Source: an uncultured Desulfobacterales bacterium
GTDB lineage: Bacteria; Desulfobacterota; Desulfobacteria; Desulfobacterales; JBDRRP01
Reading direction: 5' to 3'
NCBI GenBank assembly: GCA_964446485.1
Contig: CAYUOU010000007.1
Coordinates: forward strand, 7,826-71,825
DNA length: 64,000 nt
In this document: piece after piece, positions 1,185 to 64,000 of the stretch
Layout: each line of letters starts with the position of its first letter
How positions within the stretch are numbered: the stretch's first letter is position 1
Notes under the pieces: model-generated
Told to the model about the DNA's origin: nothing
Databases searched by the model: none
What the model saw: the letters and a program-made list of their open reading frames with translations, nothing else
Translations under genes and position numbers: made by a program

Positions 1185-1188
1185 AGCG

Positions 1189-2064: not shown

Positions 2065-2237
2065 CTAAGGGCATCGAAGTTCTTCCCCGAGTGTATAGAC
2101 ACCCCCAATATCGCCGGCATAACGCGGCGTGTGCCTGCCGATGCCAAGCCGCGTCGCTGGTTTAACGAAAGGTTTGATGTGGGCCGGAAGCATTCCGGTG
2201 CGGGGTCTACCATGCCATAACGAAAAGGCTATAGCCC

Positions 2238-2687: not shown

Positions 2688-2716
2688 GGGCTCGCGCTGC
2701 GCTGCGCACCCCTGAC

Positions 2717-4113: not shown

Positions 4114-4136
4114 CCGATTGCTGAAAGGAGACGGTA

Positions 4137-5889: not shown

Positions 5890-5986
5890 AGTATTGGTTA
5901 TGACTCCAAAGCCCTGAGCCGAAAGTCGGGGCACCTGCCACGCGTCATACAATGCGCCACCCACGACAACGGATAAGGGAAATATT

Positions 5987-7693: not shown

Positions 7694-7795
7694 GCCGGGA
7701 CGCATGCGTTGCAAAATCTCCGTTTCGCCGCGACAATACTTGCCGGCGAACGCAAGTCGAGCGGTGGCGGGGAATGCGCCCGCTGCACGGGTTGA

Positions 7796-11273: not shown

Positions 11274-11285
11274 TCAAAGCGGGGT

Positions 11286-23340: not shown

Positions 23341-23410
23341 ACGATCCGCCGCGCCGGGCGGCACTGCTTTCGATGGAATAACATCATGCCCTCGGTTTGA
23401 GGCGTTCGAG

Positions 23411-23824
23411 ATGGCGCTTTCCCGCAACCAGATGATCGTGTCTTCAGTATTTCTCGTCGTTGCCATGGGGACGGTGGTAGCCATGTACTATCGGGCGACA
23501 ACCGGTGGGTTTGAAGAACGCCTCAAGGAGCACCGGCAACGGGCCGAGGCGACCCAGTCGGCAGAAAAAACGACGGTGCCGGGCGATCGGGTGGTATTGA
23601 TCAAAGACGAACCGCTCGTCATGGGACGTGTGAAGCTGGTATACCGGGGAGTGTCCGATGACCGCATTCACCTCGACATCTACCTGCTGGACCTGGATCC
23701 AGCTTATCCGTACCCCCGGCATCTGACGAAGGACGAGGCCGGAAAAAGCATCCATATAGGGTCACGGTTCTACCGCCTTCACGCGGTCACCCGGAAATCT
23801 CTGACCCTGGTATTCGCCAACTGA
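23411..23824 (+). CDS. Hypothetical N-terminally membrane-anchored protein
   Basis: 137-aa ORF with one N-terminal hydrophobic helix (IVSSVFLVVAMGTVVAMYY). No family recognised. Confidence 0.55.
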   Translation: MALSRNQMIVSSVFLVVAMGTVVAMYYRATTGGFEERLKEHRQRAEATQSAEKTTVPGDRVVLIKDEPLVMGRVKLVYRGVSDDRIHLDIYLLDLDPAYPYPRHLTKDEAGKSIHIGSRFYRLHAVTRKSLTLVFAN

Positions 23825-23858
23825 CAGGCCTTGAACAACGAATCGAGAGAGGTGCCCC

Positions 23859-25502: not shown

Positions 25503-25643
25503 AACATCATCAGGACTGCATGCCAATAGCCGCAGGCATTACAGTGCGTTGAGATGCCCCGGTCGAAAGCCCGTAAATTCCCTCGGATGTCGTCCCAAGC
25601 GTAGCGGGGGGTCTGTGTGTTAATCAGAAAACGCATTAGAAAA

Positions 25644-25670
25644 GGCGATGCGTGTCGCATCGCCTTTTTT
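25644..25670. terminator. Rho-independent terminator, potentially bidirectional
   Basis: GGCGATGCG-tgt-CGCATCGCC (9-bp GC-rich stem) is followed by TTTTTT on the plus strand. On the minus strand the same stem is followed by TTTTCT. It lies between the convergent pgm gene and the 70-aa ORF. Confidence 0.6.
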
Positions 25671-25712
25671 ACTACGCGCACCCGCCCCCATCAGGCGGAA
25701 AAATATCAAGGG

Positions 25713-25925
25713 CTAAACAGTGGAACGGTCTGTCTTCAGGTCCGCACAATCCATGGAAAGCGCGGCCATGAGTTCGATGATTCGCTCGTCTTTGGTTTTG
25801 ATGTGCGTAAACGGTTCGTGAACGAATCCTTCCCTGATGGTGGTAAGCTTCTTTTGGAACAGCTGATATTCATCTGTCCCGCCAAAGCATTTATAAATAT
25901 AATACCAATCTTGAGGATTTTGCAT
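25713..25925 (-). CDS. Hypothetical 70-aa protein in a locally low-GC segment
   Basis: SD AAGAGG 7 nt upstream of the ATG. The composition is protein-like (MQNPQDWYYIYKCFGGTDEYQLF...). It is co-oriented with and downstream of the 740-aa repeat protein and the giant gene. Confidence 0.5.
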   Translation of the reverse strand: MQNPQDWYYIYKCFGGTDEYQLFQKKLTTIREGFVHEPFTHIKTKDERIIELMAALSMDCADLKTDRSTV

Positions 25926-26076
25926 ACCGGTACCTCTTTTCAGCGTGAGGAATCGAGCGTGAGGATAAGTTTGAATTTGTACCAGGTTCAGCCGACAACA
26001 TCAAGATGTGCGACACGCCAATGATGCCCTATCGCAACACTAAGAGGTATACTATGCATGAATTGTGAGAACATCA

Positions 26077-28299: not shown

Positions 28300-28372
28300 T
28301 CATATTCTCCTAATATGACCGGCGGCCGCTCTCAGCTTCTGTAGGAAACCGCCTTTCAGAATTAATAATACA

Positions 28373-31300
28373 TCAACGAACATTACCGCCGGATTCGTCG
28401 GGGATCTTGGCCTTTTTATCTAAACTCGCGCGCTGCTTCAACTGGGGATCGCTCAAGGGACCGACCGCAAAGTCCAAGGGGATGATGGTGCCCCGAACGG
28501 TGGCCATGGCATCACCGCTGTCTGTTTGAACCGATTGGGATTCGGTTTCATTACCGTATGCCGCTGCCTGTACCGTGACGCCGGCGTTTCCTGACCGCGC
28601 CGCGGATGATGTTGTTGCCATGGGGGCGATGATGTTTGTATCACCCGACGCGGGTTCCCCGTCGGAGCTCGCCTGGGCCTCGTCGGCGGCAGTGACGCCG
28701 GTTTCGACAAGGGCGGCTGTCGCGATACGCGGGAACGCGATTGGCGCCACGTCAAAGACTGCCGGCATAATTGTCGCCGCTGCTTCTGACGATGCCGTGG
28801 GCCCATCAAGCGAAGCGACATCCACAATGGTGCCGGTATCCGCCGCTACCATCGGGGCCGGGGCAGAAAAGACGGACAGCGAGGTCCTTGCCGGTTGAGG
28901 TGTTGCCTCCGCCGGAACTGCGGCATCCCCATCCGAAAAGCCTGCCGGCGTCGTGACGCCATAGCTGAACACCATGACATTGGACAAGGGATTGAATCCC
29001 GCGGGGTTCCAAGACTGTACCGTCCAACTGTAACTGCCATCTTCAAAGGTCATGGCCGGTGACCAGGTGCCCACTGAATCGAACCATTGCTCCTTGAAGA
29101 AATCGCCGTCCTTCAAGATGATCACCCGGTACCATTGGACATTGGGAAGCAGGGTCCAGGTGAAAGTGACGCCGGAAGGGCTTCCCAGGCTGCCGCTGGG
29201 GCTGATGGCCGTGGGCGTACCGGCGGCACCCGCAGCCGGAATGATGAATTGCGCAGGCGCGGATGTCAGCCCTGCCGGGGTGTTCCCATCCAGCGGCTGC
29301 ACGGTCCAGCGATAGGCGCCCGCCGCAAAGGCCGAGCCCGGAGCCCACTGCGTCGCGCCGTCAACCACCTGGGTCAAGAATGAGGCGCCGTCCTTCTCTA
29401 CGACAACCTGGTAGCGGGTGATTCCGCTGACGGGCGTCCAGATGAAGACAAGGCCGTCACCGGTTGTCGTACCGCTGGGTGCCAGAGCCTCCGGCCGGGC
29501 CTTGATGGTGAATGTTGCCGGATCCGATTTGGTGCCGAAACCCGCGGGGCTCCAGGGCTGCACCGTCCAAGCGTAGTCGCCTTGCGGGAAAGGATAGCTC
29601 GGGATCCACTCCGTACCGTCGACCCATAGCGCGTCAAAGACGGAACCGTTCCGGAGGATTTGCAGGTAGTACCGGGTTGCCCCATCGACGGACGGCCACC
29701 GGAAGGTGCCCCCGTCGCTGGTGAGCACGGTGATATCGTTGGTGGGTGTCGTCATCGGCGCATTCACCGACACATCGTCCGCGGTGATCCCGATAGACCC
29801 GGTTCCGGTGGTGGTGATTGGCGCATTGACCGAGATGGTGCCGTCCTGAGATGTCAATATCACCGAACCATCGTCGGTGGTGGTCAACCCGCTGACCGGA
29901 TCGTCCGCAACAGGAACCGGGGTACCGTCGTTCAAGACCCTGTCGATATTCAACGGACCCACCGTCCCGACTTCGAAGCTGTCGACATCGCTGATATAGA
30001 TGCCGCCGCTGCCGGAGGTGGCGGCCACGGTGTTCACTGCTGTATCCAGCGGGTCGCCTTCCGTGCCGATGCCAAGGCCCGCATCCATTTTCAACCCGTC
30101 GGCGATCACATCTGTAGTGGTGTCGCCGCCGTCGATAATCGATCCTGCTGTGGCCGTTAGGCTCACATCGCCGGCGGCGGCATCGATACCGCCGACTAAA
30201 ATGTCCTGGTCCGCCGTGTAGCGGATATTGCCGTCGGCGCTCTGGGTGGTGACCCCGTCGGTCATGGTAATGGAACCGGCACCGGCCGCCACATCGATGG
30301 TGCCGCCGTTGGAGATAATGTCGGCACCCTGGGCCACATCGGTGCCGGCCAGCAGAAGAACGCCGCCGGTGCCCGAAGTGGTCACGGTATTGGTGACTGC
30401 AGCCCCACCGGCCGCGGCGATGATGCCGACGTTTCCGCCGCCGGCATCGACGTTGCCAAGGGTAACGTCCAGGGCGGCTGTGTAGGCGATATCTCCGCCG
30501 GCGCTCTGGCTTGCCGCACTATCGGCCATAGCGATGGTACCGGCACCGGCAGACACGCCGATGGCGCCACCGCCGGTCGTGATATCGGCATTCTGCGTGA
30601 CGTGGGCGCCTGCTTGCAGGTCGACACTGCCGGTCTCGGTGGTGATGCCGGCATTCTGGGTGACGTCCCCATCCGATGCCAGGGTGACGTCACCACCGCC
30701 GGTGGCAGCCACCGGGCCGTCTATGGTGAGCGCACCGTTGACGACTTGCTGACTTACTGAGCCGCCGTCCGTCGTCGAGAATCCGCTCAGCGCCGGATCG
30801 GTGAGCACTGTTCCATCCTCGAGTACGAGGGTCTGCTCCGCCACGGTGCCGATGGACAGCGCGCCGTCATTGGCCACGTGGATGCCCCCGCTGCCGGCTG
30901 TGGCGGCAATGGTGTTCACCATGGTGTCGATGGGGTCCTCGGCGGTCCCGATGCCGATACCGGCCGTAAGTTTCAAAGTGTCTGCGACCACGTCCGTATC
31001 GCTGTCACCACCGTCGAGAATGGATCCACCGGCGGCAAGGGTCACATCCCCTGCCCCCGAATCGATGCCGGAGAGGGTCACATCCTGCGCCGCGGCGTAG
31101 CGGATGATGCCATCGGTAACCTGTGTAAGGGTTCCATCAGTCATAATGACGGATCCGGCGAGGGATTCCACATTGATGCCGCCGGCCACAGCGGAGACAT
31201 CCGCCTGTTGGGTTACATCGCCGGATGCCAGAAGCAGTATCACCCCGGCCCCGGCGACACGCACATCGGCATTCACTGTGAGCGCGCTGTTGGGAAGGAC

Positions 31301-34300
31301 AACGGAAATCGCCGGTGCCGTGCCGGCGGCGGTGATCCCCGTGCCGGTGATGGTCAGGTCGTCGGCTTCCTCGATGAACACCCCACCCTGGCCGGCGGCT
31401 GCCGACACCGAAGTCAAATTCGTGTCGATATCGCCGGCACCCACAAAGCCCATGGTGGTGCCCGCCGTCAGGACAGCGCTGTTGCCGGAAATATTTGCAT
31501 CCTCGCTGGTGGAGTTATCGATGATGGCGCCGGTGGTGGCCGTCACCACGACACTGGCTGCGGAAAGGGCGCTCAGGGCCACATCGCCTTGTGCCACGAG
31601 TGTGGCGGATGCAGCGGCCTGCGCTGCCGTGCCGTCGGCCATCGTGATATTGCCGCCGGTCACATCCAACGTGCCAAGCTCGCCGCCGGTGGTCGCGCCC
31701 ATGTCGGCGTTGAAAATGACATCACCGTCACCGCCGACCAAGGTCAGATCCTTCTGCCCACCGACGTGGCTGTTCGCCGGGCTGTCGGCGGTGAAGATGA
31801 TGTCTCCGATACCGATACCGGTGGCAACGCTCACATCGCTTCCAAGTGTGACGGCGCCGTTGAAGCGAACATCGTCGCCGGTGGTGGTCACCGTCATGCC
31901 TGCTGCGCCGCCGTTCAGGACAATCCCGCTGCCGTTGATGACATCGGCACCCGTGCCGATGTCGATGGCGCCGTCGGTGGCGACCACAGTCACCGGGCCG
32001 GTGAGCCCTGTCTCCGTGTCGCTGCCGCCAAGGACCACCCCGCCATCGGCCCGTTCCACCGTCAATGCGCCGATGGGTGTGCTGACGCCGATGTCTTCAT
32101 TGAACGCCACGCTGCCGGTGCCGGCGGCCAGGGTCAGGTCGTTGACCTCGCCAGGAGTGCCGTCCACCGGCGCGTTGTTGGTGAAGGTAATGTCTCCGGC
32201 GCCGGTACCGGTGTCGATGCGCACGGCGCTGGCCAAGGTGACCGCCGTGTCAAAGACGATATCCTGCCCGGCCGTAGTGATGGTAAACGTGTCGTCGCCG
32301 CCGTCCAGGGTGATGTTGGTGGCGGAAACGGTCAGCGCGCCAAGGATGTCATCGGCGCCCAGATCGCCGCCGAAGGTCACGGTGCCGGTTCCGGCGGTGA
32401 GGACCAGCGGGTTGTTCTCACCGGTCTGGCTGTCAATGGGGCTGTCCGGCGTAAAGGTGATGTCCCCGGCGCCAGCGCCGGTGTCGACAGTCACCGCGCT
32501 CTGGAGTGTGACGGCGCCGTTGAAGCGCACGTCGTCGCCGGTGGTGGTAACGGCCAGTGCGCCGGCCCCGCCGTTGAGGATGATACCGGTGCCGGTAATG
32601 GCAGCAATGCTGCCAATGTCGACGGCCCCATCGGTGTTGACCGCGTTCACCGGACCGGTGAGCGCCGTCTCGGTGTCGCTGGTCCCGAAGGTGACGCCGC
32701 CGGCCGCCGTCTCCACGGTAAAGGTGCCGATGCTCTGGATGGCGCCGATATCCTCATTGAAGAAAACGCTTCCCGCACCGGCGGCCAGGGTCAGATCGTT
32801 ATGCTCGCCGGCGATGCTGTCGATGGGACTGGCCGAAGAGAAAGCGATGCTGCCGGCGCCGCTGCCCGTGTCGATGGTCACTGCGCTGCCCAGGGTGACC
32901 GGCCCATGGAATCCCACATCAGCGCCTGCGGTGACGATGGTGACATCGCCCGCGCCGCCGTCCAAGGTAATGTCGGCTGCCGTGACAGCCAATGGACCAA
33001 GGCTGCCGCCAGTGCCCATGTCGCCGCCGGCAAGCACAGCACCGGTACCGGCCGTCAGGGTCAGGGGGTAGCTATTGGCCGGATCGATGACATCGCTGGT
33101 GACGCCGGCGATGGTGGTGGCGAAGAAGGACCCCGTGCCGTCGTTGTTCTCATCCAGTTCCGTATCGAGCGATGCCCGGAAGGTCTCCTCGGCGTTGACC
33201 GCCGCGATGACCTCGTTGGCCGTGGAGCCCCACACCAGAGCCTTTAGATCGCTCGTCACATCGGGGAATGCTATCTCCGTAAAGGTCCCGAAACCGGTGT
33301 TCCCCGGATCCAGGTCCGTATTCAGCGTCGCCGTGAAAGTGTCGTTCGCCTCGTTGTTGATGGCGGCGACGACATCGTTGGCAGTAGAGTCAGCAGCGAT
33401 GTGGACGGTGAGCACGTTGGTGCCGGCATCATAGGTTGCCGTCTCGGAGAATTTGGCCCCATCCATCACGAAAACGATGTCTGTGCTCTGCGGGGTGCCC
33501 TGGTTCTTGGCCTCGAGGGTCAGGGCGTTGTTGTCGCCGTCCGGATCGATGCTGCCCACGGCCACGGCCACGCTCTTGATGTGGATGGTCAGCATGTTGG
33601 CGACCGGGTCGTACTCAACCCATTCCTCGCCCTTTTCCACATCGTCCACGAAAACGATGTCGGTGTTTCGGTAGGCCTCGCCCGGGATAGCGGCGACAAA
33701 GGTGATGGCGTTATCGCTGCCATCCGGATCGATGGATCCAGTGGCGATCCCAAAAGCACTGTCGACGGTACCGCTGCCGGTGAAGACGATGTCGCCGGGC
33801 AGCGCCGCACCGGTGTCCATGACCACTTCGGATGCCATGACCACGTCGCCGTTCAATCGAATGTCGCCGCCGAGGGTGCTGAGGGTCAGGGGCGTGTCTG
33901 CACCGCCGCGGTTGATGGCCGCGATGACATGGCTGGCCGTGGAAACGCCTGCCTGGACGTGGAGGGTCAGCGTATTGGTGAAGGCGTCGAAATCGGCGGT
34001 TTCGGTGCCTGCCGCCGCCAGACCGTCCACCACCACGACGGTCAGCGCCGTCAGGTCGTAAGCGGGGTCACCGGCCGTGAATACCAGGGCGTTGTCATTT
34101 CCGGGCAGATCCAGCAAACCGGCCGCAGTCACCGTGTTGTAGATGCCGGGCGGAAGGGTCCCGGTGCCGTCGTTATCCGGGTCGTTGTCGCTGCCGTTCA
34201 GGACGGCGGCAAAGGTGCCGTCATCGTTGATGGCAGCGACGACCTGCGTAGCCGTTGATTCGCCGGCCGCCATGTGAATGGTCAGGGTATTGGTGCCGGC

Positions 34301-37300
34301 ATCGTAATCCACGGTTTCCGCGCCCGCCGTGTCCACGTCGTCGATAAATTCAACCGTCAAGGCCTCAACATCCACGCCGGGAACACCGGTCGACAGGACG
34401 AACGCGTTGTTGTCACCGGAATAATCCACCAGGCCCGCTGCGGTTAATTGATTGAAGTCCCCTGGCAGGAAGGTGCCGGTGCCGTCGCTGGCCGGGTTGG
34501 TATCGCTGTCTGTGAGGTCAGCGGTGAAGTGCCCGCCGTTGAACACGATACCGGTGACGCCGATTTCAGAGGCACTGCCCACATCGATGCCGTTGACCGC
34601 CGTCACCTGGGCCACCGGGCCGCTGTCGACGCCATCGGTGCCTGCGGTGCCGAAGACCACGCCGGTGGCGCCGGTGACGATGAGGCTGCCCAGTTCATTG
34701 GCCGCAGCGCCGGCACCGATGTCGGCGTTGAAGAATACCGTGCCGGTGCCGGCGGACACGATCAGATCGTTCATCTCACCGGTCTGGCTGTCCACCGGGC
34801 TGTCGTTGGTAAAGGTGACGTCGCCGGGTCCGGTATCGGTGTCGATGGTCACATCGCCGGCCAGCATTACCGCACCGTTGAGTCGGATGTCTTCACCGTC
34901 GGTGGACAGCGTCAGCGCACTGCCGCCGCCGTTGAACACGATGCCAAGGCCGCCGATGGCCTGCGTGCCGACGCCGAGATCGATGGGGCCGGCGGTGTCG
35001 ACCACGGTCACAGGGCCGGTGATGCCGCTGCCGGGCGTCTCGCTGTCGCTGCCGCCGAACACCACCCCGCCGTCGGCGCGGACCACAGTAAGGGCGCCAA
35101 TGGGGGTCCCAGCGCCCAGATCTTCGTTAAATGTCACGCTGCCCGTGCCGGCGGTAAGCGTCAGGTCGTTGGCTTCGCCCGTTTCGCTGTCCACGGGGCT
35201 GTCGTTGGTGAAGGTGATGTCGCCGGCGCCCGAACCGGTGTCCATGGATACCGCACTGGACAGGGTCACGGCACCGTTGAACCGTACCGGCGAATCGGTG
35301 GTGGTGACGGCCAGGGTGTCGTTTCCGCCGTTGAGGACAATGCCGCCGGCGATGGTGTTGGTGGCGGTGCCCACGTCGATGAGACCGGCAGTGGCGATGA
35401 CGGTCACCGGACCAGTGGCACCGGCCCCGGCCGTTTCCGTGTCGGCCTCGCCGAAGAAGACGCCCGCATCGGCGCGGGTAATGATCAGATCGCCCAGGGC
35501 CTGGGAGGCGCCAATGTCTTCATTGAACCGCACGGCGCCGGTGCCGGCGGTGATGGTGAGGTCATTGTTTTCACCGATCGGGGCGATGTCGCTGGTGACG
35601 TCGGCGTAGGCGCCGGCCAGGAAGAACCCGGTGCCGTCGTTGTTCACATCGGCCAGGGAGTTCAGGGCCGCCGTGAAGGTGCCTTCGGCGCCAACAGCGG
35701 CGATGATATCACCGGCCGTGGATCCGCCGACGGCTTTTTCTTCATCGGTCACGTCGGTGAAGGTGGTTGCCGTGAAGGTACCGGTGCCGTCGTTGGGCAT
35801 GAGGTCGCTCAGGGAGGCGGTGAAAGCCCCCGTGGCCTCGGCGTTGATGGCGGCAATCACCTCGTCGGCCGTGGAGCCGCCGTCACCGGCCTGCATATGG
35901 ACCGTCAAGGTGTTGGTGCCGATGTCGTACTCGGCCGTTTCGCTGCCCTTGACGGCGTCATCCACGAACACCACATCCACATTGGCGAAGGCCGCGCCGG
36001 AGGCGTTGGCAACCAAAGCGATGTCGTTGTTGTCGCCTGCCGGGTTGAAATACCCAGTGGCCACGGTGTCGCTCACGATATGAACGGTCAGGGTGTTGGT
36101 GGTTCTGTCGTAGGTGGCCGTTTCGCCGCCCACCGCCGGTGCGTCGTCCACGAAGATTACGGTCAGATCCTGGTAGATCTCTCCCGGGCTCGCGGCAGTG
36201 AAGGTCAAGGCATTGTTGCCGCCGGCCGAATCCAGGGTCCCCACGGCCAGGCCGAAATCGCTGTCCACCGGACTGTCATTGGTGAAGGCGACGTCGCCGG
36301 CCATCGCCACGCCGGTGGTGATGGCAAGATCGGTTTCCAGGCTCACGGCGCCGTTGAGGCGGATGGTGTCGCCAGAGGTGGAGAGCGTGATGAGGTTCGC
36401 CGTCGTGCCGCCGTTGAGAACGATGCCGCCGCTGCCGATGGCAGACGTGGCGCCCACATCGATGTCCGTGGTGGCGGTGTTGCCGTCCCCCGCAATGTTC
36501 ACCAGGGACACCGGGCCGAGGTCGCCGAACGCCGTGTCGGATCCGCCGAAGATCACGCCGTCGGCATCGGTGACCACCAGCCGCCTTAAGGCGCTGGCGT
36601 CGCCGATATTGGCGTTGAAGGAAACCGTTCCGGTGCCGCCGGTGAGGGTGAGATCGTTGGTCTCGCCGCTGGCGCTGTCCACCGCTGCCTGGCGGGTGAA
36701 AAGAATGTCGCCGGCACCGGCGCCCGTATCCACCGCCACATGGGTGTCGAGGGTGACGGTTCCGTTGAATCGAACGCTGTCGTCGCTGGTAGTGAGGGTG
36801 ATCAGATTGGCAGCCGTGCCGCCGTTGAGGACAATGCCCCCGGCACCGATGGCGGTGACGCTGCCGATATCGAGATCGATGGTGGCATCGTCGTCATCGC
36901 CGGCAATGGTCACTGCCGTCACCGGACCCAGGTCGCCGATCGCCGCATCGGCACCGCCGAAAGTCACGCCGTCGGCATCGGTGACGATGAGACGACCCAG
37001 GCCGGTGCCTGCCGCCGCCGCACCCACAGTGGCGTTGAAGGCCACCGCGCCGGTGCCCGCCGTGATCCTGAGATCGTTGGCCTCGTTGGCATCGCTGTCC
37101 ACAGTCGCGTGCTGCGTAAACATGACATCCCCGCCGCCCAAACCCGTATCCAGGGACACGTGAGCGCCCAGGGCCACCGGCCCGTTGAAGCGCATGTCGC
37201 CGCCGTCGGTGGTCACGGCCATCTGCAGGGTCTGGGGAGTGACACCGCCGATTTCGGTTACATCAATGAAATCTCCCGTCAGGTATTGACCCGTACCGTT

Positions 37301-40300
37301 GTTATTTAAATCGGTGTCGGTGTTCTGGAGATTGGCAGAGAAGGTCCCTTCATCGACAATGGCCGCAATGACCTGATTGGCCGTGGAACCGCCAGCCAGG
37401 ATGTGAATGGTCAAGGTGTTGGTGCCTGCATCATATTCAGCCGCTTCATTACCCGCCACTGCAAGATCATCAACAAACACCACTGTCATGTTTTCAAAGT
37501 CAAAGTCGGGTTCACTGGTGCCAAGGATCAGGGCGTTGTTGTCACCATCGAGGTCAACGACACCCGTCTGGGTCACCCGATTGAAAATCCCGGACAAATA
37601 GGTGCCAGTGCCGTCGTTGGCAGGATCGTTGTCGGTGTTCTGCAGATACGCTGTAAACACGCCGCCGTCGTTGATGGCGTCGATGACCTGGTTGGCCGTG
37701 GAATCGGCGGCCGCATGGACGGTGAGGACGTTGGTGCCGGCGTCATAATCCGCCGTCTCCAGACCATTGGTCCCGTCCAGCACAAAGGTCACATCGGTGT
37801 TTTCGAAGGCGGCCCCGGGGCTGTTGGCCACCAGGACCAGGGCGTTGTTGTCGCCGTCGGGATCCACGGTGCCGGATGCATTGGCAGAATCGGCGGTGGC
37901 GCCGCCGTTGAGGACGATGCCGCCGGTGATGGCTGAAGCAGCGCCGATGTCCATGGCGCCCTGGATGCTGATGATGTTCACCGGGCCGGTGGTGCCGTCG
38001 CCGAGCGTCTCGGTGTCGCTCTCTCCGAAGATGACGCCGCCGTCGGCCCGCGTGATGGTGAGGGCCGCCAGAGCCTGGGTCTCGCCGATGTTCTCGTTGA
38101 AGCGTACCGTGCCGATGCCGGCGGTGAGGGTAAGACCGTTGAACTCACCGTTCCGGCCGTCAACCGGGCTGTCGTTGGTGAAAACGATGTCGCCGGCGGC
38201 AGTGCCCGTGGTGATTACGGTATTCGAGTCTAAGACCACGGGGCCGTTGAAGCGCACATCGTCGCCGCTGGTGGTGATATTAAAGGTGCCGGCGCCGGCG
38301 TTCAAAACAATGCCGCCGTCAATGGCATTGGTGCCGGTGCCGATGTCGATGCCACCCTCGGTGTTGATCACTGCCACCGGGCCGGTGGTGCCGCTGCCGG
38401 CCGTCTCGCTGTCGGCCTCACCGAAGATGACGCCGCCGTCGGCCCGGGTGACGGCAAGCATGTTCAGGGCCCGGGTTTCGCCGATATTCTCATTGAACCG
38501 AACCGTACCCTCGCCGGCTGTCAATGTCAGGCTGTTGTTCTCAGTCGCCTGACTGTCCACCGGGCTGTCGTTGGTGAACGTGATGTCGCCCGCCGCCGTG
38601 TCGCCGGTGCTCACGGTAACATCCGAGGCGAGGGTCACGACGCCGTTGAAGCGGATGTCTGCGCCGGTGGCCGTGACGGCGATGGTGTCCGGGCCGCCGT
38701 TCAAAATGATGCCCGCGCCGCCGATGACGTTCGTTCCGGTGCCGAGATCAACGACACCCTGGGTGTTGACGATGTTCAACGGGCCAATGCCGGCCCCTTC
38801 AATGTCGGCCCCGCCGAAGATGACGCCGGTGGCGGCAACGACGACGGTCAGTTCATTGAGGTCCTGAATCGCGCCGATATCTTCGTTGAACTGAATCGCG
38901 CCGGTGGCGGCCGTCAGGGTCAGGCTGTTGAACTCGCCGTCCTGGCTGTCCACCGGGCTGTCATTGGTGAATGTGATGTCGCCGGCGACCGCAGTCATCA
39001 CGGTGTCGGAATAGAGCATCACAGGGCCGTTGAAGCGCAGCCCGCCGGTGGTGGTGGTGATGACGATGGGCGGCTCGGTGGTGGCTTCAACCCCGTCGTC
39101 GCCGCCGTTGAAGACGATGCCGCCGGCGCCGATGGCAGAAACGCTGCCAAGATCGATGCCGCTGGTGACGGTGACCCCATTCACCGGCGCCAGGTCGCCG
39201 TCAACGTCCGGCGTGTCGGCGCCGCCGAAGGTCACACCGGCGGCGTCGGTGATGGTCAGGCGGCCAAGCGCGCCGTCAGTCCCACTGCCGATGGCGGCGT
39301 TAAAGGAGACGCTGCCGGTGCCGGTTGTCAGGGTCAGATCGCTGGCCTCACCGGTCTCACTGTCCACCGGCGCAAATTGAGTGAACAGGATACTGCCTGC
39401 GCCGGTGCCGGTGTCGATGGATACGTCGGAGGCCAGTGTCACCGGTCCGTTGAAGCGGATGTCATCGTCGGTGGTGGTGATGGTCAGCGTGCCCGCGCCG
39501 CCGTTCAGTACGATTCCGGTGCCGCCGATGGCGTCGCCACCCGTGCCCATGTCGATGGCGCCGTCGGCGTTGATCAGCGTGACCGGGGTGGTCTCACCGA
39601 CGGTTACCCCGCCGGTGGCCTGGGTGACGGTCAAGGCGCCGATGGATTCCGAAGCGCCGATTTGGTCATTGACGAACACGCTGCCAGTACCGGCGGTGAG
39701 GGTCAGGTCGTAATGGGTGGTGACCGCATCGCTGTCGATGGGTGTGCTGTCGGCGAAACGAATGTCGCCGGCCGTGTCGGCGCCCGTGGTGAGGGTCGTG
39801 GCCTGCATCAGCACAATGCCCCGGCCGGTGCCGTTGGTGTCGAGCGTCATGTTACCGGCATTGGTGCTGATGGGCGCCGCCGCATCCAGGAAGAGGCTGC
39901 CGTTCGTGGTGCGGATCGCAATGCTGCCGACCGCCGCACCGTTGGCCAGGGCAACGACGGTGAGGTCATTCGTTTCCAGGATATCGATGCCGCCGCCGGT
40001 GGCGTTGGCGATATCAGCGGAGCCCACCGTGGTCTCCAGGGCGCCGAAGGCCCCGGCAACGCCGATGCCCGTGCCGGCGGAGATGACCAGCCGCCCGTCT
40101 GCCGCCTCTACGTCTACCAGTGCGTCGCCGCCGTCGATGACGCCGGCGTCGGTGGTGAGGGTCACCGCCGTGTCGGTGGCGTTCGTGGTCAGGAGGCCGC
40201 CCAGGGTGATATTTCCGCCCAAACCGTTGACAGCGCCCTCGGTGGAAAGTGCGATGACGCCGGCACCGGCATTGATGAGCATACCGTCGGCCATGGTAAT

Positions 40301-52300: not shown

Positions 52301-55300
52301 TGTACTGGCGCCGCTCTTGATCTTTACCAAGACGAGGTCGCCGTTGTAGCTCGCGGTTTCAGATCCTGCCGCCGCCACGGAGCCGTCATCGATAAAGGCG
52401 ATTGTTTTGCCGGTGCCACTTGGACCGGTGCTATTGGCTGTGATGGTAATTTGTGCCCCGCTTGCATCTGCGTAAACAGCGGAAGCCGGGTCTCCTGCAC
52501 TGCCGCCGCTGGTGGTCGCCGTAATGAAAGCGATGGTGCCATCGCCGGCGCCGTCGCCGCTGTTGACGCTGGCGTCAAAGAGCAGGGTGGTTTCGCTGGC
52601 ATCTTGCACAGCGTCGATAGCGCTGATGACGTCGCTGCGTGTCGTGGCGGACAGGTGTTTCAGGGTAATGACAAGCACCTTCGAGGATTCGTTGTAGTCG
52701 GCCTCAGCGTCGCTGGAAATGGATGGATCATATTGGAACCTGAACGAAACGCCGTTGTACTCGGTGCCGCTGATCCGTGCGGTGATGTCGATGTCGTTGT
52801 TATTGCCCATGGGCGACAGCGTGTAGGCGGCTGCCCCGCCGCCGCTGCCGCCGCTCACCTGGGGAGCGGTGTTGATCGTGCCGGTGCCGTTGTTGGTGCC
52901 GTTGATTTCCCCAGACGTTACCAGCTCGGCCGTGAAGCCGGCGAGGTCCGTGTTGATTTCGCTGACGACGGCATTGGCGGTGGTGAGCCCGTTGTGAATT
53001 GAGATCGTCAGTGTCTTGCTGGTGGCGTCAAAACTGGCGTTGGCCGTAACGGCATCCAGGCTGCCATCGTGCTCGAAGGTGATTGTCACGGAAGCGAAGT
53101 CATCCGCGGATGACGTCGCCTCGATGCGTATGTCGTTGTTATCGCCGGACGGTCGCAGAATGGCGAAGGGGTTCGACCCGATGAGCTTCCACAGTTCGGT
53201 GCCGCCGCTGGCCGTTGTTGCCGAGAAGTAAAGCTCGTTGTGACCGCCGCTGGTCCAGGCTTTGAAATTGGAGGGCGAGGCGCTGGCCGAACCGGGGTTG
53301 AGGTCTCTGACCTCGAAGGTGTTGGCCGCCAGCCCCCGTGACTGCCACAATTCAACACCGTTGGCGCCTTCGGCTGTGAAATAGAGTTTGTTGTTGAAGA
53401 CGGTGAGGTTGGCCGGATAGGCGTCCCGGTTATCCCCCGTGATGTCGGTAACCTGTACGGTTTCGGCAAGCGGATTATTGACCGAGAGTCCGTTGGTCTT
53501 CCACAACTCGATGCCGTTGGTGCCATCAGTGGCGGTCACGTACATGGTACCGACGTCGAAAACGACAATCTCGGGTGCGTAGAGGGCATTGGGTATGGGG
53601 AACGCGTCCCCTGCCCCGGCGTTGATGTCGGTGACACGGCTTACCAGGGTGCCGTCGCTGCGCCACAGCTCTCTGCCGCTGACGCCGTCGTCGGCGATGA
53701 AGTAGATCACGTCGTCGCCGGCACCGTTCTTATCGTTCCAGACGGTGAGGGCAAACGGATCCCGCAGCCGGTTGCCGCCAACTGTCGAGCGCACCACCGT
53801 CGTGTCGGTGCCGTCGCTCATCCACAGCACCTGACCGGTGCCGTCGCTGGCGCTAAAGAAAAGGTAGTCGTCTCCACCGTTGGTGATCACGGTGAGCTGG
53901 GACGGTTCCGGTATGGCCACGTTGGCCCCGATGGGACGGGTGCTGCTGGGGAGGCCGTCGGTGGTGGTCCAGAGCGATGGCAGCCCATTGAAGTCCGCGA
54001 CGAAGAACAAGGTGTCGTCCACCGCAGTGAGGTCGCCCACATCCACCAGGGCGTGGGGGCTGCCATCCAGATCCAGGCCGGATGCCACCTGCAGGGTCGT
54101 CAAGTCTGTCCCGAAGCTGACCCACAGTTGGCTGCCGCCGGTGTCGTCGACGACGAAGAAAAGGCGATCCACAAGGGCCGTCAGTTCCACACCGAGGGCC
54201 GGCAGTTCTGTGACGAATTCGGTGCCGGCCGCCGACCCGTCGCTCTTCCAGAGCTGGTAACCGGTATTGGTTAGGGTGGAACCGTCGGGAATGCCCGCCG
54301 GCACGTCCTTTAGGGTCAGGTAAAGTACGCCTGACACCGGGGTCATTTCCACCGGAGTCCCCACCACCCCCGCGACATTCGTGGTGCCCGCGCCGGTGCC
54401 GTTGCTTCTCCACAAATCGTAACTGCCGTCGTCGTTGCTGACGACGAAGTACACGTCGCGCCCCAGCACAGTGAGCAGTGAAATGTTTTCCGGCAGGGTG
54501 ATGTCCGTCTCCACCAGACTGGACAGGGCAAGCAGCACGCTGGCAAGATGCTGGGGGTCATCGAGGTGATCCAGGTACCTGGCCAGATCGAACTCCATGA
54601 TGGCCTGGTGGGTGGTGTCGACGGTCAGGTCGTCACCCACCTGCTCCACCCGGCCGTCCGATGTGATGACACCGTCCACCGCACCGATCAAAATGGTGGT
54701 TGCCGGCTGGGATACCGGAGACAGGCGGATGTAATTGCCGGCCACGCCGTCCCCGAGGGTCGTGAACCGGTACCATCGCTCTGATGCGCCCAGCGGCAGG
54801 GTGTATCGATCGTCGTCGAGGACGCCGTCCTGCTCGAAGTCGGGGTCGGCAAAAGTGTCGGGCTGCCCGGTGCCGGTGTCCACGAGGAAGTCACCGCTGC
54901 CCGTGATGGTACGGTTGGCGATGACGTCGTAGCCGGAGGTGGGCATGGTCGCGCGGCGGCTGGTCCCGTAGACGATGTAAACCCGGCCGGCATCTTCTTT
55001 GATACCGCCCACGAATCCGTCGGCGGCTGCCGCACCTACCATCAGATCATCGATGCGGTCGCTGTTTACGTCGAGGCCCGGAGCAGCGGAAAGCGTGCCC
55101 AGGGCGTCGAATTCGTTTTCACCCTCGAAAGTCACATCCGCATCGGCCAGGGCGATGACACGACCGTGATTTTCCGTGAGGGAGTAGAACAGGAACGCGC
55201 CGCCGCGATCGTTTCGCTCCAGGATGGCGTCGTCTTCCGGTGCGGCCGATTGGCTCAGGGTCTGGATGACACCGGTTCGACCCACAACGAGATCCTGCTC

Positions 55301-58300
55301 CCCGTCGCCGTTGAAGTCGCCGCCCGTGGCAGTGAGTGACGACACCAGTGAAATGGCGCCCAGTTCGTCGATGCCGGCCTGCTGGATGACGATGTCGGCG
55401 GCGCTGATGGCGGTCCTTGTCGCGACCTGGATGCCGGTAGGCGTATAGTCGGCCCCGCCAAAGAAGATCAGCAGCGCGCCGGAAGCGTCTCCACCGTCTT
55501 CCCGAGTGCGGCTCACGGCAAAATCGTCGTAGCCGTCACCATTCAAATCCCCTGCGGCACTCACGGCACCACCCAAAGAAGTGTCCGAGAACCGACCCGT
55601 GGCGTCTCGTTCGAGCTGCAGGCCGGCTTCGTAGCCGAGGGTCACGGCAAACAGTTCAAGAAAAGCGATAATGCCGGCATCCGGGGACAGTTTGATCAGG
55701 TCCTTGACCGTCTTCGCCGTTGTTACGCCCTGGGCGACCTTTATGGTCAATGTCGTGCCGGATATCCCGAACGTGGCGTCATTCGTTGTCACGGTGCCGT
55801 CATCGACGAACCGGATGGTGTAGCTGAGGGCGCCGTTGTTCTTCGCATCGAATCGGAGGTTGTTGTCTTCACCGGCGAAATCGAAGACAGCGTTGGCTTT
55901 GGTCGTTGCCGTGCCGCCCTGGGTGGTGTCGATGGCTTCGGCCACGGTACCCAGGCCGTCGTTGAAATCGATGGGCCGCCCCGGAAGGAGGTAAGCCCGG
56001 CCGGTCTGAGGTGTTGTGGCGGTTTCTACAATGTCACTGCTCTGGAAGGCGGTGACGCTGAAGAGGAGGTCGTCCAGGCCGTCGCCGTTGACGTCGCCGG
56101 CCACCGTCGATTTCAGCGAATCGGCGGTTTCGGGCTTGAAGGAGAAGGTCAGCGCCCAGCTGTTGAGCTGTCCATTGTTACCGTCGTTGTCGTCGTCATG
56201 GATGACGAGCCGCCAGGTGCCGTTGGGGTCTTCCCAGTCAAAGTCGGCCAGCGACCCTTCGGGACGGAAAGTGCTGCTGAAGGGGGCGGCAGCCCCGGCA
56301 ATGGCCGTCAGGGCCTCGTCGTCCAGGATCGTGTTGATGGTTGCCGTGCCGAAATTGGCCCCGGCGCCGCCTACATCGCTGAACAACTCCACGCGGGTAC
56401 CGCTGGGGCTGTAAAGGTAGACGTCGAGGTCGGCATCCAACGGGTGGGTGATATTGAGGGTGACGTTGACGTCGGCCAGGCTGTCGGGCAGACCGGCCAC
56501 CACCATCTCGGAGACTGCCGGGTTGGTGTCGATGTCCAGCGACCAGCTGTTCAAGGTGCCGGCGTAATTGCCGGTGGTGTCCACGATCTTCAGCCGCCAG
56601 GTGCCGTTCATCTCGTAACCGCCGGTGGTCAAGGCGGAGGCCGTGGTAACCGTACCGGTCCCGTTGTTTCCGGCGGCGAGGTAGACGTCGAAGGGTTGGT
56701 CGGCAATGTCGCTCACGGCCTTCATCACCTGGGCAGCGGTGCTGCCGGTGGAGAAGGTCACGGTGAGCGTGCGGGTGATGCTGTTGTAGGCGGCGCTGGC
56801 ACCGCCGGTACCGCCGTTGACAAAATTGATGGCAATGCCGTTGTAGGCGTTGCCTGCATCACGGGCCACGAAAACGAGATCGTTGTCGCCACCGCTAGCA
56901 CCAAAATAAAAGTTGGCCGTGGCCGCCATTCCGTCGAAGAAGTTCAGGCTGTTGAACGGTGCATAGGTGCCGGTGCCTGTGTAGCCGGCAATGCCAGGGG
57001 CGCTCGCGTCGTCGTCCAGGGTGATGTTGACGAGGTCGGATTGCCCGCCGCCGATGCCGTCCACGATGCGCCGTTCACGCCCTGAGGGATCCACCAGGTA
57101 GATCTCGAGGTCGGCAACACGCGGGTGGTCGAGGTCGAGGGTGAGATCCACGTCCTTGATCTGACCAGCGAGTCCCGTAACGTCGATATCGGAGTAGTAC
57201 GGGGCGTCTGTCCGGAAATCGAGGGTCCAGTCGGTAACCTGGGCCACCTGTCCCGGATTGATCTTGTTGTCGGTGACAAGCAGCTTCCAGTCACCTATCG
57301 GGTTCTGCCCGTCGAAGGCGTTGAGGTTGCCAGCTGCGGCAAAAGTCCCGTTGAACGGGGCGCTGTAGTTGGCGATGTCCGCTGTCGCCGCGGCGTCGAA
57401 TTGGGTGTTGGTGAAATTGGACCCGTTCCGGTTGATCTGGTCGAACAGGGTGATCGTCGTGCCCGACGGGCTCTGAAGCTGAACCGTAAGATCGGAAATC
57501 CTCGGGTGCGTTATGTTCAGCGCCACGTCGACGTCGGTAATGTTGCCGCTGACGTCCCCGGGGCTGACGGTCTTGGTGTAGGTGGTCGTCCGGGCACTGG
57601 CAGTGTACTGGGTCGAAATGTCAAGCCGCCAGTTCTCCAGATATCCCTCGAAGCCGCGCAGCCTGTCGTAAATCTCCAGACGCCAGGTGCCGTTGGCCGG
57701 CTTGCCGTCAAAGGTGGACAGTGCCTGAATGGGTCTGAAACTTCCTGTAAAAGGCGCTGCCCCCCAGGTTACGGGTGTCGCCGCTTCGTCGTTGAAGAAG
57801 GTGTTGGTGAAATCGTCTCCAGACCCGCCAACCTGGCCGGCCAGCTTGATGCGCGTTCCATCGGGATGGACCAGATAGATGTCGATATCCCAATCCCAGG
57901 TGTGTTCGATGTTGAGATTGACATTGACATCGGTGATGACTTCGTCGGCGTGCCAGAAACTGGTGATGTTCTGGGTGGAAACCGCTGTCTGGTAGTCGCT
58001 GATGAACACCGCCGGGGTGCTGGTCCTGAACAGATTCTCCTGGGGCACGACACTGTAGCTGGCGTCGCCGGGTTTGATCCACTGGAGGACGGCCGTCGCA
58101 CCACCGCCGCGCTCATAGTACTCCATCTTGAGGGAGTACACCTGTCCCACGTTCAGCGTGAGATAGGGGCTGTAATCGTATGTGGGGGGGTGGTCCGTCC
58201 AGTTGTCGATCCGCAGAACGCCGTCTATCCAGACGCGTACCCCGTCGTCCGACAGCGTCCTGAATCGGTAAGTCCCGGACTCCCTCACCTGGATGTAGCC

Positions 58301-61300
58301 GGTCCATCTGGCCGACACATTGTCCGCCTGCCCTGAATTGCCCACATTTCCCCCGCCCCAGTAGAAATTGATGGTCGATGCAGTCTGGGTGGGGCCGGTT
58401 ATTATGAAATTCCCCCAATAGTATGCGTACAGGCCGTTTCCTGTGCCGGCGTGGGATCTGTAAAAATTGTCGCTCGCTGTGGCGATGTTGGCGTCGTTCA
58501 GGGTGCCCACGCCAACACCGTCGTCGACAACAACGGTGATCTTGTCCGGGAACGAAAGATCGGCGTTCGGTTCGATGAAATCGTCGTTGTTGGGGATCCG
58601 CAGCGACGGATCGTCTACCGAAACGGTGGTGGTGAACAGGGGCAGTTCCGCGGTGGCAGCGCCGATCTCGTAAACGTTGCTGCCGTTGACGGGATCTTTC
58701 AACACGCTGCCTGAGAAGATGAACCCGTAGTTGTTGAAGTCGTCGGGCAGCGAGGACACCGCCACCACGTCGTGGTGGGTCAGGCCCGAGACGGCATTGA
58801 TGGTGCCGATATACGGCATCACGAAAACCGAGGTTTCCATGGGCACGAACCGGGCGTCGTCCAAAACGATGAACCGGGTGTAGATGGGATCGAGGACGGC
58901 GGCGCTGACATCTCGCGGCAGGTCCCGACCGCCCAGAATGATGGTGATGACAGTCTTGCCCATGGTGTCGTCGTGGCGGACGAAGACCAGATCCGCAATC
59001 CCGTCGGCGTCTATGTCGCCCATGCTGTCGGCAGGCCGCCCCAGGCTCACGTCGTCGAAGATGAATTCGGCCGCGTTGGTCACTTCCCTGAGGCTACCGA
59101 TGTCCACTGGACCGAGGAAGACGTAGCTCTTGCCGGTGCCGCTCACCAGGATGTCGTCGGCGCCGTCGCCGTCGAAATCGCCGATGTTCAGGGCCGTGGT
59201 CAGCTGCTCGTCGGTGGCGCCGCCTTCCAGGGCAAAGGCGTCACGGACGTTCTGGGTGCCGGCAATGGTATCGGCAAGGTCGATGCCGGTGTACCCGCTG
59301 GACGTACCCGGAGAGAAGTACGGGGTGGCCATCGCGAAGGAATGCAGCCGGGGCGTGGCGCCGGTGGCAGTGCCGCCGGTTTCCGCCGGCTGGTAATCCT
59401 CGCGGTCGCTGCCGTAGTAAATGTGAATCTTCCGCCCCAAACGCTCGGCCAGGGCCAGATCGGCAAGCCCGTCGCCGTTGAGGTCGCCCACGGCGGTAAA
59501 GAAATTCAAGGAGGTGGTGTTCTCTGAAGCATCCAGATAAGTGGCGAAATCCGGCTCGAAGGCAAGTTGTGTGAACAGGTGGTCGGTGGCCGTCAACGTG
59601 TTTTCGCCAAAAATGACCTGACCCACCGAGTGAACGACCTGATTTCCGTTTTCGGCCAGTTTGGGGCTGGTTTCCAGCGCGATGGCGCCGATGTCGTCAA
59701 CACCCGCCGGTGCGCCGCTGCCGCTCGCACCGATGTCGCCGAGACCGATGATGAGCCGGCGGCTGGTGTCCACTAACGCGTCATCGAACACCATGGTACC
59801 CGGGGTCGCCGTACCGAAGAAGAGATAGGATCCGGCCGGCCCCGACAGAACGAAGTCGTCAAAGGTGTCGTTGTTGATGTCACCCACCGGCCGGAGCGCG
59901 GTGTCCGTCGCCTGCACGGATTCGCCAGCCAGAAAGCCCAGCAGTTTCAGGGTAAGGGCGTTGCCAGGGCTGCTGTCGATGCCCAGTTCGGCCACCGGGC
60001 TTGCCGTGTTGGAGGCCAGATACAATCGGTCGTTCTCGGTGCCGGCCTCGTCGATGATGCCCGCCTTCAGCCGCCCGGATAGCCCGGCAGCGGCAAGGGC
60101 GGTGTTCAGATCGGCTGCCAGGTGGGATAGCATCGTGTTGTCGTCGGTGCCGGTGACGGTCACCGTGACCCCGGTGGTACTGCCGTCCAGGTACAGAACG
60201 AATGATGGCGCAGCGCCGGCCTGGTTCGGCAGGATGTAGTCAGATACCGGCGGCGCGCGACCCATCAGCAGCGGCAGGCCCTCACCTGTCGGCGGGGTGA
60301 GGACTAGGTCGACACTGTTGTTGACGGCGGCGCCACCCAGGAAGATGTCGGTCCGACCGCTGAGCGGCACAAAAATCCCGACATCGTCGAACCCGTTACC
60401 GTCAATATCGCCAATGCCGACCATGGAGTCGGCGCCGGCAACGGTGAAGGCCACGTCGTTGTCGCTGACGTTGGGCTGGATGGTGACGGTGACGTCGTCC
60501 ACGTACCACCCTTCGTACTGGTTCTCCAGGTCGTCCACGCTGTCGAAGGTGAAACGGACCTTTATCAGTTTATTGAGATAGTCTCCGGGGATGCTGGCCT
60601 TGAAGCTCGCCCAGGCGTCCCCGGTGGGATCCAACAGGGCCTGTACGCCGGCCGCAGTGTAGTTGGCCGCCAGAAGCGACGCATCGTTGTTCACGTTGAA
60701 GGCATCGGCCGCGCCGTTTACGGTGGAAATCCACACCTGGGCCTTGTCGTAGTCGGGGGCCTGACCTTCGGTGTGGAGGAAGTAGTCGAAGGAAAGGAGC
60801 GCCGCCGTCACGCCGGTGAGATCGAAGACCGGTGAAGTAATATGCCCACCGGCATGTCCGACATCATAGCCGTCGCCGGCAGTCCTGCCGAAGTAAAAGC
60901 TGAAAAGATTCGCCGGGTCGTCGTTACGACTGGAAATGCCGCCGCTGGTGACGTCCGCATAGGTGGACACGGAAACGAAGCCAGTGTCCCCGCCGGAAGC
61001 GGAGAACTGTTCGGTGGCTTCGATGGCGGCCCTGACCACGCTGGAAGGCGTAACGCCGTTGATGATCCACACGGTGAGCACGCCGTCGGCGTAACTGGCC
61101 GTACCCAGCAACGGATCGCCGATAGTGGTTGCCTTCAATTCCACGTCCACGGCGTTGAACAGGTGCCCCGGCAGGGTGGCCGTAATCACGATGTCATCAG
61201 CCCCGCCCAGGGGAATGGTACCGGACGCGGCCACTGCCGCCCCGTGGACGTGCCAGAGGTTCACCGCTCCGGCGATGGGATCCACGGCAAAGCCGTCCGT

Positions 61301-64000: not shown

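Follow-up and report, generated by a model that had tools for sequence, protein, structure and literature searches.

A cysteine-free mosaic megaprotein, likely a giant surface fibre, is encoded by one uninterrupted frame in an uncultured Desulfobacterales bacterium

A 64,000-nucleotide stretch of contig CAYUOU010000007.1 from an uncultured Desulfobacterales bacterium (hereafter the window) carries on its minus strand a single real coding frame, 28373-64000, which runs off the window edge and constitutes the 3′ 35.6 kb of one bacterial gene (Table 1). We think it likely that the full gene, probably of at least 45.6 kb, encodes an exported, Ca2+-binding, cysteine-free and highly acidic mosaic protein that would form a long fibre, either on the cell surface or extracellular, bearing many binding modules. 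Residue numbers of this megaprotein count from the window edge throughout, its true N terminus lying outside the window.

An earlier note on this DNA, made from the letters and a list of open reading frames (ORFs), had described an uninterrupted frame of more than 35.6 kb and more than 11,875 codons, and a stop scan bears this out: above its terminal stop the frame is stop-free and still open at the window edge. At the base composition of the window a random minus-strand codon is a stop with a probability of about 0.031, and the chance of 11,875 stop-free codons is about e^-369 (about 1e-160); after it, the longest open frames belong to real genes (999 codons at most) and to antisense shadow ORFs (820-920 codons at most). 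The GC content at codon positions 1, 2 and 3 (0.61/0.49/0.77) is uniform over 2,000-codon blocks and resembles that of the neighbouring housekeeping genes, curated domain models match the frame from residue 140 to residue 6880, and the C-terminal third of the protein has homologues at 41-52% identity. A chance ORF was rejected on the probability given above, the coding-type GC at third codon positions (GC3) and the domain matches along the frame. We also regard it as very improbable that the frame is a chimeric or collapsed assembly, or a set of adjacent genes only seemingly fused, even though the source looks like a metagenome-type assembly and high GC3 also yields the opposite-strand shadow frames just mentioned. 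Besides the chance probability and the uniform codon-position GC, this explanation has against it that no DNA repeats within the gene exceed 82% identity or 280 nt, which makes short-read repeat collapse unlikely, and that in two orthologues, both from other samples, the frame stays open and collinear for 17-21 kb. Furthermore, the 3′ end is reproduced at 100% by an independent Logan assembly (L166, a 7.8-kb contig of run SRR7048221), which matches window positions 22392-30148 and covers the downstream genes together with the stop codon and the final 591 codons. Assembly collapse was accordingly rejected on the repeat identity and the independent 3′ end.

Scans of genomes and metagenomes with the first 400 residues as query identified collinear orthologues in a metagenome-assembled genome (MAG) labelled Candidatus Zixiibacteriota (L001, 17.3 kb fetched), in Guaymas MAGs labelled Zixiibacteriota and Deltaproteobacteria (L002 and L003) and on the 80.1-kb JGI metagenome contig Ga0209678_1000021 (L081, at about 30.7-51.9 kb of that contig; 21.2 kb fetched). 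L001 and L081, each open throughout the sequence fetched, are collinear with the window protein (34-58% identity) from residue 2 to about residue 3700 and align collinearly with one another, at 57% identity, over 3,333 residues upstream of the point matching the window edge, where both carry a chain of 15-17 RTX stretches; both loci are themselves cut upstream. Because these frames continue for at least 3,333 codons beyond the equivalent of the window edge, the full gene probably comprises at least 45.6 kb and at least 15,200 codons. The source NCBI contig measures 78,944 nt, so that at most 14.9 kb lie outside the window and the gene can reach at most about 16,850 codons on that contig. The TTG at 63895, the first start-type codon of the ORF track, is listed as a start only because the frame extends past the window edge; that it is internal and the true start lies further out, as first proposed, agrees with the open, collinear continuation of L001 and L081. 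The 35 codons above it had been likened to a module recurring twice, and they indeed belong to the RTX-containing module of residues 2-208, which recurs in full at residues 371-573 and in part at 6779-6895 and which is, in the orthologues, the last of the long upstream RTX series.

An exhaustive HMMER search with residues 1-1200 returned 114 cluster representatives at E ≤1e-30, and in several homologues of 4,000-8,000 residues the corresponding module lies 3,100-5,500 residues from the N terminus. The homologues returned by our searches reach about 8,000 residues at most and are mostly fragments, with no full-length relative among them; nor did the homology searches find an exact match to the window protein, the closest being P0084, a 202-residue fragment at 92% identity. 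In five homologues of 5,000-7,600 residues (P0059, P0104, P0107, P0156 and P0099) the N terminus shows an Arg-rich stretch followed by LE.R.LLSA, which looks like a lineage-specific N-terminal leader. We take this leader to be typical of Planctomycetota, and it may hint at the export of distant relatives.

The public gene calls around this family merit a separate remark. Most database relatives of the giant gene are fragments of the type of P0051, a public protein of 821 residues. P0051 starts at a false internal Met because a run of N, a scaffold gap, lies at about 1130-1236 of locus L163 inside the orthologous giant ORF, and the beta-solenoid-like frame is open upstream of that gap. The high GC3 of the giant gene also creates many antisense shadow ORFs over window positions 28400-64000 (+), of up to 820 residues with a start codon. 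A 375-residue antisense ORF lies at the equivalent place in three orthologues (L001 9215-10342, L002 155-1282 and L003 563-1690, all on the minus strand), and antisense "genes" occur among public calls, for example a 228-residue call at L163 3-686 (-). These antisense ORFs are probably annotation artefacts.

The visible product of the giant gene has a mass of 1.207 MDa and a pI of 4.05, with 1,525 Asp and Glu versus 410 Lys and Arg, no cysteine among its 11,875 residues and no transmembrane-like segment found anywhere along them. Cysteine is likewise absent from the 7,064 residues of L081 and occurs nine times in the 5,759 of L001; its avoidance is conserved and far stronger than in typical proteins. 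The overall composition is the one shown by proteins that leave the cell unfolded and acquire their fold outside.

Domain content was assessed by Pfam, NCBIfam and PDB matches, an internal hidden Markov model (HMM) for ELWxxDGT repeats and a regular expression for RTX nonapeptides (GGxGxDxUx). The last of these detects 12 nonapeptides in two blocks, the final one at residue 6936 of 11,875; HemolysinCabind matches fall at residues 148-183 and about 6843-6880, and the blocks match the RTX regions of CyaA and serralysin in the PDB. The ELWxxDGT model TIGR04534 scores 356 bits against a cutoff of 65, over 12 stretches, and the internal HMM resolves 29 repeats in four arrays, from which the megaprotein can be classed, on sequence, as an ELWxxDGT repeat protein. 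Of the mosaic that the earlier note had read from the translation, these searches recover the RTX modules, the FG-GAP and PA14 modules, the four P-domains (joined by a partial fifth), the four ELWxxDGT arrays and the LRR followed by LamG. Two modules did not hold: no PPC domain was found in the visible protein with Pfam or NCBIfam models, and the MAM-like region returned an InhA-like match below the Pfam cutoff. As that note had also stated, no catalytic family is matched in the visible protein by either set of models.

The tail-fibre-like modules claimed for the protein likewise proved to be real, in four copies common with annotated phage tail fibres. The region that holds them matches the distal tail fibre of Legionella phage LME-1 (orf22; PDB 9EFK chain AE, E 5e-10), virion families of PHROG (E down to 9e-40) and, at 36-52% identity, proteins annotated as tail fibres in phages of Pelagibacter, Roseobacter, Methylophilales and Synechococcus. 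The LME-1 tail fibre, with 18 copies in 9EFK, is a hexamer of trimers (PMC12407071). It is with the distal part of these phage fibres that the four cores of about 76 residues and the adjoining mini-domains align (E down to 2e-21 and 9e-40); unlike in phages, the modules here reside inside a cellular megaprotein flanked by housekeeping genes, and no phage genes were found in the window.

Two repeat families account for much of the remaining architecture. The first is a 65-residue mini-domain with the consensus G..F.....I.FVDDG...G.ETA.YD...NTLTV.I..G.TTA..VI.AIN....FTA.L, for which an AlphaFold2 model from an alignment of 21 internal copies gives a beta-beta-beta-alpha arrangement at a mean predicted local distance difference test score (pLDDT) of 86. 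The mini-domain has no Pfam match, and Foldseek searches with its model against PDB and BFVD returned nothing significant; a marginal profile match to an OspA beta-hairpin among PDB sequences (E 2e-4 over 33 residues) was treated as compositional. The second family, a super-repeat of about 130 residues, forms the core of an all-beta tract that is repetitive, rich in Gly, Thr, Asp and Ala, and without Pfam, NCBIfam or PDB sequence matches; a profile of the repeat found nothing among PDB sequences. An AlphaFold2 model of residues 9458-10289 (832 residues) reaches pLDDT values above 90 over its first 370 residues (9458-9827), and this confident part consists of short beta strands only, with a period of about 132 residues over three super-repeats. 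The best Foldseek matches of the model in PDB and BFVD are the beta-helical MpAFP and VacA, neither of them significant. Homologues of the super-repeat in public data lack Pfam domains, except one with the autotransporter-associated beta-strand repeat PF12951, and no secretion genes were found around two of them (L161 and L162). The beta-helix-like character that had been ascribed to this tract of about 13 kb thus stands as a prediction, in that about 4,400 residues of all-beta repeats and a high-confidence model over three super-repeats speak for it, while the fold itself is unproven. Judged by these searches, the super-repeat and the mini-domain are two repeat families without a database description.

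At the C-terminal end, three tandem repeats precede a variable low-complexity linker and a conserved terminal peptide. The repeat trio is the best-conserved stretch among the orthologue fragments P0051-P0053 and had been called FN3-like; three repeats of about 70-90 residues are indeed present, Pfam gives no fn3 match for them, Big_13 matches two of the orthologues weakly and a profile of the C-terminal region found nothing among PDB sequences, so that an Ig/FN3-like fold is plausible but unproven. The last 40 residues carry the pattern G.I.P....VGP....Q and are conserved in three of three orthologue fragments, and we consider them a candidate secretion or docking signal. No known sorting domain was found at the C terminus with NCBIfam or Pfam.

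A co-directional gene follows closely downstream and encodes a 740-residue protein with a Sec-type signal peptide, about 15 copies of a repeat of some 47 residues (consensus G.VG.Y.SIA.D..G..HISYYD..NGDLKYA), a poly-Gly run and the motif CFIGTA. Neither Pfam nor NCBIfam provides a family for this protein, which is probably a beta-propeller. The pair of giant gene and partner is conserved in three relatives: in L163 a partner orthologue (3801-6227, 56% identity) lies downstream of the giant C terminus and ends in a full CFI-box-CTERM (NF041770, 1-69/69, E 1.5e-28) followed by a hydrophobic tail, and in L165 a partner orthologue begins after the stop of the giant gene (2007-2117). No CFI-box continuation of the window partner was found in any frame, and the protein is either truncated or a tail-less variant. 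The partner probably works with the fibre, and we speculate that it does so as an anchor, dock or assembly factor; an anchoring role would not apply unchanged in this genome, because the window partner lacks the remainder of the CFI-box and the tail. A more far-reaching proposal, which we ourselves hold to be doubtful, is that fibre and partner form an undescribed, conserved two-gene system in which a cysteine-free megaprotein of more than 15,000 residues and without a known sorting domain would be held or assembled at the envelope, through its C-terminal 40 residues, by a Sec-exported, beta-propeller-like and CFI-box-CTERM-anchored protein. If true, this would amount to a novel docking mode for giant surface fibres, in a little-known lineage that is related to Zixiibacteriota-labelled MAGs, and the super-repeat of about 130 residues and the 65-residue mini-domain, two families for which no relatives are known, would be the building blocks of the docked fibre. 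Our literature search returned nothing relevant on CFI-box, ELWxxDGT, run SRR7048221 or Zixibacteria giant genes.

We propose a model in which the N-terminal part of the megaprotein, mostly upstream of the window and represented there by the orthologues only, would provide a long series of RTX Ca2+-binding stretches, followed by a head of about 6,500 residues that would display the PA14 domain, the P-domains, the FG-GAP repeats, four propeller-type ELWxxDGT arrays, four tail-fibre-type modules and the LRR with LamG. The super-repeats, with mini-domains in between, would make up a beta-solenoid-like shaft of about 4,400 residues that would then lead to a C-terminal end of three Ig-like repeats, a flexible linker and the conserved 40-residue peptide. 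The chain would leave the cell unfolded and fold outside upon binding Ca2+, and unfolded export fits because the protein lacks cysteine, has a low pI and contains RTX blocks; our first guess for the route is a type-1-like export via the conserved C-terminal peptide. Once folded, the fibre may work as a multivalent adhesin or fibril, attaching to the glycans and proteins of particles or other cells. We infer the function as a cell-surface fibre or adhesin, with which composition and domain content agree, much as the earlier note had done.

Several points weigh against this reading. The N terminus, with any signal peptide, retention module or two-partner-secretion (TPS) domain, lies outside the window, and we infer expression, export and surface location of the giant protein from its sequence. 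The last RTX block lies about 5,000 residues from the C terminus, unlike in known adhesins of the type 1 secretion system (T1SS), in keeping with the earlier remark that the blocks lie thousands of residues away, and no T1SS, type 5 secretion system (T5SS) or other secretion genes were found in the 28 kb downstream, again as that note had read the T1SS and T5SS case. About 40% of the protein is without family assignment, and the lack of a catalytic domain means that no Pfam or NCBIfam model matched. The beta-solenoid derives from a single AlphaFold2 model whose remainder, about half, is of low confidence, and neither Foldseek nor PDB sequence searches with the shaft gave anything significant. 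Finally, the window partner stops nine residues after CFIGTA, without the remaining CFI-box and the hydrophobic tail.

Near counterparts are the type-1-secreted RTX adhesins (LapA, MpIBP, FrhA, SiiE; 1,500-15,000 residues), with which the megaprotein has in common its giant size, acidity, scarcity of cysteine, RTX nonapeptides, PA14 and lectin-like ligand-binding domains, repetitive fibre build and lack of a catalytic domain. A canonical T1SS adhesin of the LapA/MpIBP/FrhA type, with its T1SS genes upstream outside the window, would further account for the many additional RTX stretches upstream in the orthologues and for the conservation of the extreme C terminus. In canonical RTX adhesins, however, a C-terminal beta-roll of 120-450 residues directly precedes the C-terminal T1SS signal, whereas here neither RTX nor beta-roll is matched by Pfam or NCBIfam in the last 3,175 residues, and the nearest block ends at residue 6880. 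There is no tandem Ig-like extender array either, Pfam finding no Big/Ig family match in the window protein and the repetitive part being a solenoid-type repeat of about 130 residues; the RTX modules of the orthologues are concentrated N-terminally, the reverse of the canonical order, and genes for the ABC transporter, membrane fusion protein and outer membrane factor are absent from the 28 kb downstream. The beta-roll at the C terminus as well as the extender array having been tested and found absent, the canonical RTX-adhesin family was not adopted, and we judge this explanation unlikely. A Sec-dependent beta-helical exoprotein of the TPS/filamentous-haemagglutinin type, or one following another signal-peptide route, with its N-terminal targeting domain outside the window, appears to us rather unlikely. 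The predicted long solenoid of short strands does resemble such exoproteins (FHA/TpsA, autotransporter passengers and the Ca2+-bound beta-helix of MpAFP), one distant homologue of the shaft repeat carries PF12951 and distant Planctomycete-type homologues have export-like N-terminal leaders; yet there is no sequence or profile similarity to these proteins, no C-terminal beta-barrel, no Fil_haemagg or TPS match by Pfam in the visible 11,875 residues and no TpsB/Omp85/ShlB-type gene in the 28 kb downstream, and the RTX blocks together with the total lack of cysteine fit one-step unfolded export better. A classical autotransporter of type 5a was rejected, the last 3,175 residues matching no family and the last 185 or so consisting of a low-complexity linker and a short peptide, as were cargo of the type 9 secretion system and PEP-CTERM, LPXTG and GlyGly-CTERM proteins, with no C-terminal NCBIfam or Pfam match and no transmembrane-like segment.

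A link between giant proteins and adhesion to prey has been drawn (bioRxiv 10.1101/2023.11.21.568195), and the megaprotein could by analogy be a cell-to-cell attachment device for epibiosis, predation or a consortium, as proposed for the giants of Omnitrophota (up to about 85,000 residues), and not a general adhesin. It resembles those giants in extreme size, large unannotated stretches, predicted novel beta repeats and proposed attachment, and many lectin-type folds and the four modules common with phage tail fibres, which recognise cell surfaces, would suit such a role. We nonetheless deem it improbable: the Omnitrophota hallmarks, namely a locus resembling type 2 secretion or type IV pili and pilZ (28 kb downstream) and a C-terminal transmembrane anchor, a SecA-like domain and peptidase or carbohydrate-degrading domains (protein), were not found, and the neighbouring genes are ordinary housekeeping genes. 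Extremely unlikely, in our estimate, is a polymorphic toxin or contact-dependent-inhibition protein with a C-terminal toxin and a downstream immunity gene; the very long, filamentous and repetitive shaft with its distinct C-terminal end would be compatible with it, but that end consists of putative Ig-like repeats, a disordered linker and the conserved peptide with no variable toxin domain, the downstream gene encodes a 740-residue secreted repeat protein and not a small immunity protein, and no toxin family is matched. As for kinship, the giants of Planctomycetota, Verrucomicrobiota and further PVC phyla (at least 10,000 residues; West-Roberts et al., bioRxiv 10.1101/2023.11.21.568195; PMC11573180) display a similar mosaic of RTX, FG-GAP, LamG and unannotated repeats, and several modules have their closest database relatives in MAGs labelled Planctomycetota, Pirellulales and Limisphaerales. 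These homologues differ in being 40-50% identical over single modules and not collinear throughout, several with the LE.R.LLSA leader, whereas orthologues that are truly collinear were found in MAGs labelled Zixiibacteriota or Deltaproteobacteria.

Table 1. Features of the giant gene and its partner in the window; all lie on the minus strand.
Feature	Position (strand)	Residues	Details
Giant ORF	28373..64000 (-)		11,875 sense codons plus stop at 28373-28375; 5′ end cut by window edge
RTX-containing module	63377..63997 (-)	2-208	about 200 residues; paralogous copy at residues 371-573, partial copy at 6779-6895
First RTX block	63446-63583 (-)	140-185	five nonapeptides
65-residue mini-domain	33152..62338 (-)	555 to 10283	26 scattered copies
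InhA-like MAM, weak	60449..60832 (-)	1057-1184	22 bits, under Pfam cutoff 26.9
FG-GAP_3 match	58985-59179 (-)	1608-1672	
PA14 domain	58046..58438 (-)	1855-1985	
P-domains, proprotein-convertase type	56147..57931 (-)	2024-2618	four plus partial fifth
FG-GAP repeats	54971..55570 (-)	2811-3010	
ELWxxDGT array 1	53171..54481 (-)	3174-3610	9 repeats
Tail-fibre-type region	49439..51943 (-)	4020-4098, 4152-4227, 4540-4618, 4774-4854	four cores of about 76 residues, interleaved with mini-domains
ELWxxDGT array 2	48170..49318 (-)	4895-5277	8 repeats
ELWxxDGT array 3	46706..47410 (-)	5531-5765	6 repeats
ELWxxDGT array 4	45311..46024 (-)	5993-6230	6 repeats
LRR, then LamG/pentraxin-type lectin fold	44183..44926 (-)	LRR 6359-6394; LamG 6434-6606	
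Second, last RTX block	43361..43561 (-)	6814-6880	about 7 nonapeptides; about 5,000 residues from C terminus
All-beta tract	29801..43003 (-)	about 7000-11400	about 4,400 residues, repetitive, G/T/D/A-rich
Core of all-beta tract	31400..39769 (-)	8078-10867	about 20 super-repeats in tandem, each of about 130 residues, with mini-domain copies in between
C-terminal repeat trio	28931..29713 (-)	11430-11499, 11516-11587, 11610-11680	three tandem repeats of about 70-90 residues
Variable linker	28496..28930 (-)	11691-11835	low complexity, A/S/T/P-rich
C-terminal 40 residues	28376..28495 (-)		RGTIIPLDFAVGPLSDPQLKQ...; conserved in 3/3 orthologue fragments (P0051-P0053) after variable linker
Partner gene	26077..28299 (-)		co-directional, 73 nt downstream of giant stop, AGGAGA in front

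Beyond the partner, the 28 kb downstream of the giant gene encode a phosphoglucomutase, a pyridine-nucleotide-disulphide oxidoreductase, an aminotransferase, a SulP transporter, MurJ, a protein combining PPDK_N with response-regulator receivers, an acyl-CoA dehydrogenase, an MFS transporter and UbiB. The PPDK_N protein (11286-14252 (-), 988 residues), with two receiver stretches and the ATP-binding domain, is an unusual signalling fusion. An ORF of 346 residues without a family match (17194-18234 (-)) shares 4 nt with the start of the next ORF (16763-17197, 144 residues, HATPase_c_2 of the anti-sigma-factor kinase type) and also overlaps the 3′ end of the preceding SulP/STAS transporter gene; together they may constitute a partner-switching regulatory unit. 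The ORFs at 72-596, 952-1437, 1331-2005 and 2238-2687 have no Pfam match and are putative genes. No tRNA, Rfam or plasmid matches were found in the window.

Giant bacterial genes encode mainly surface proteins as well as non-ribosomal peptide or polyketide synthases (PMC11573180), several phyla contain proteins of at least 10,000 residues (bioRxiv 10.1101/2023.11.21.568195) and RTX adhesins attain lengths of about 15,000 residues (bioRxiv 10.1101/2025.09.30.679566). The kind of gene described here is hence already known, rare but documented, and its size alone is no longer exceptional, although a product of probably at least 15,200 residues would stand at the upper end of the RTX-adhesin range. 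New are the lineage, the reversed layout, with RTX stretches N-terminal, a solenoid shaft C-terminal and no terminal beta-roll, the two undescribed repeat families, the phage tail-fibre modules and the conserved partner, which carries a CFI-box-CTERM in a relative. The modules common with marine phage tail fibres suggest that receptor-binding parts have been exchanged between phages and cellular adhesins. The locus further exposes families that databases do not describe, namely the super-repeat, the mini-domain, the C-terminal peptide and a partner tied to the uncharacterised CFI-box-CTERM, and, as its relatives are represented in public calls by fragments, by starts falsely placed at scaffold gaps and by antisense shadow ORFs, it offers a good template for re-annotation. 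With three or more relatives leaving the frame unbroken for tens of kilobases, the locus shows that a lineage related to Zixiibacteriota-labelled MAGs and absent from the main giant-gene surveys consulted maintains such giant genes under selection.

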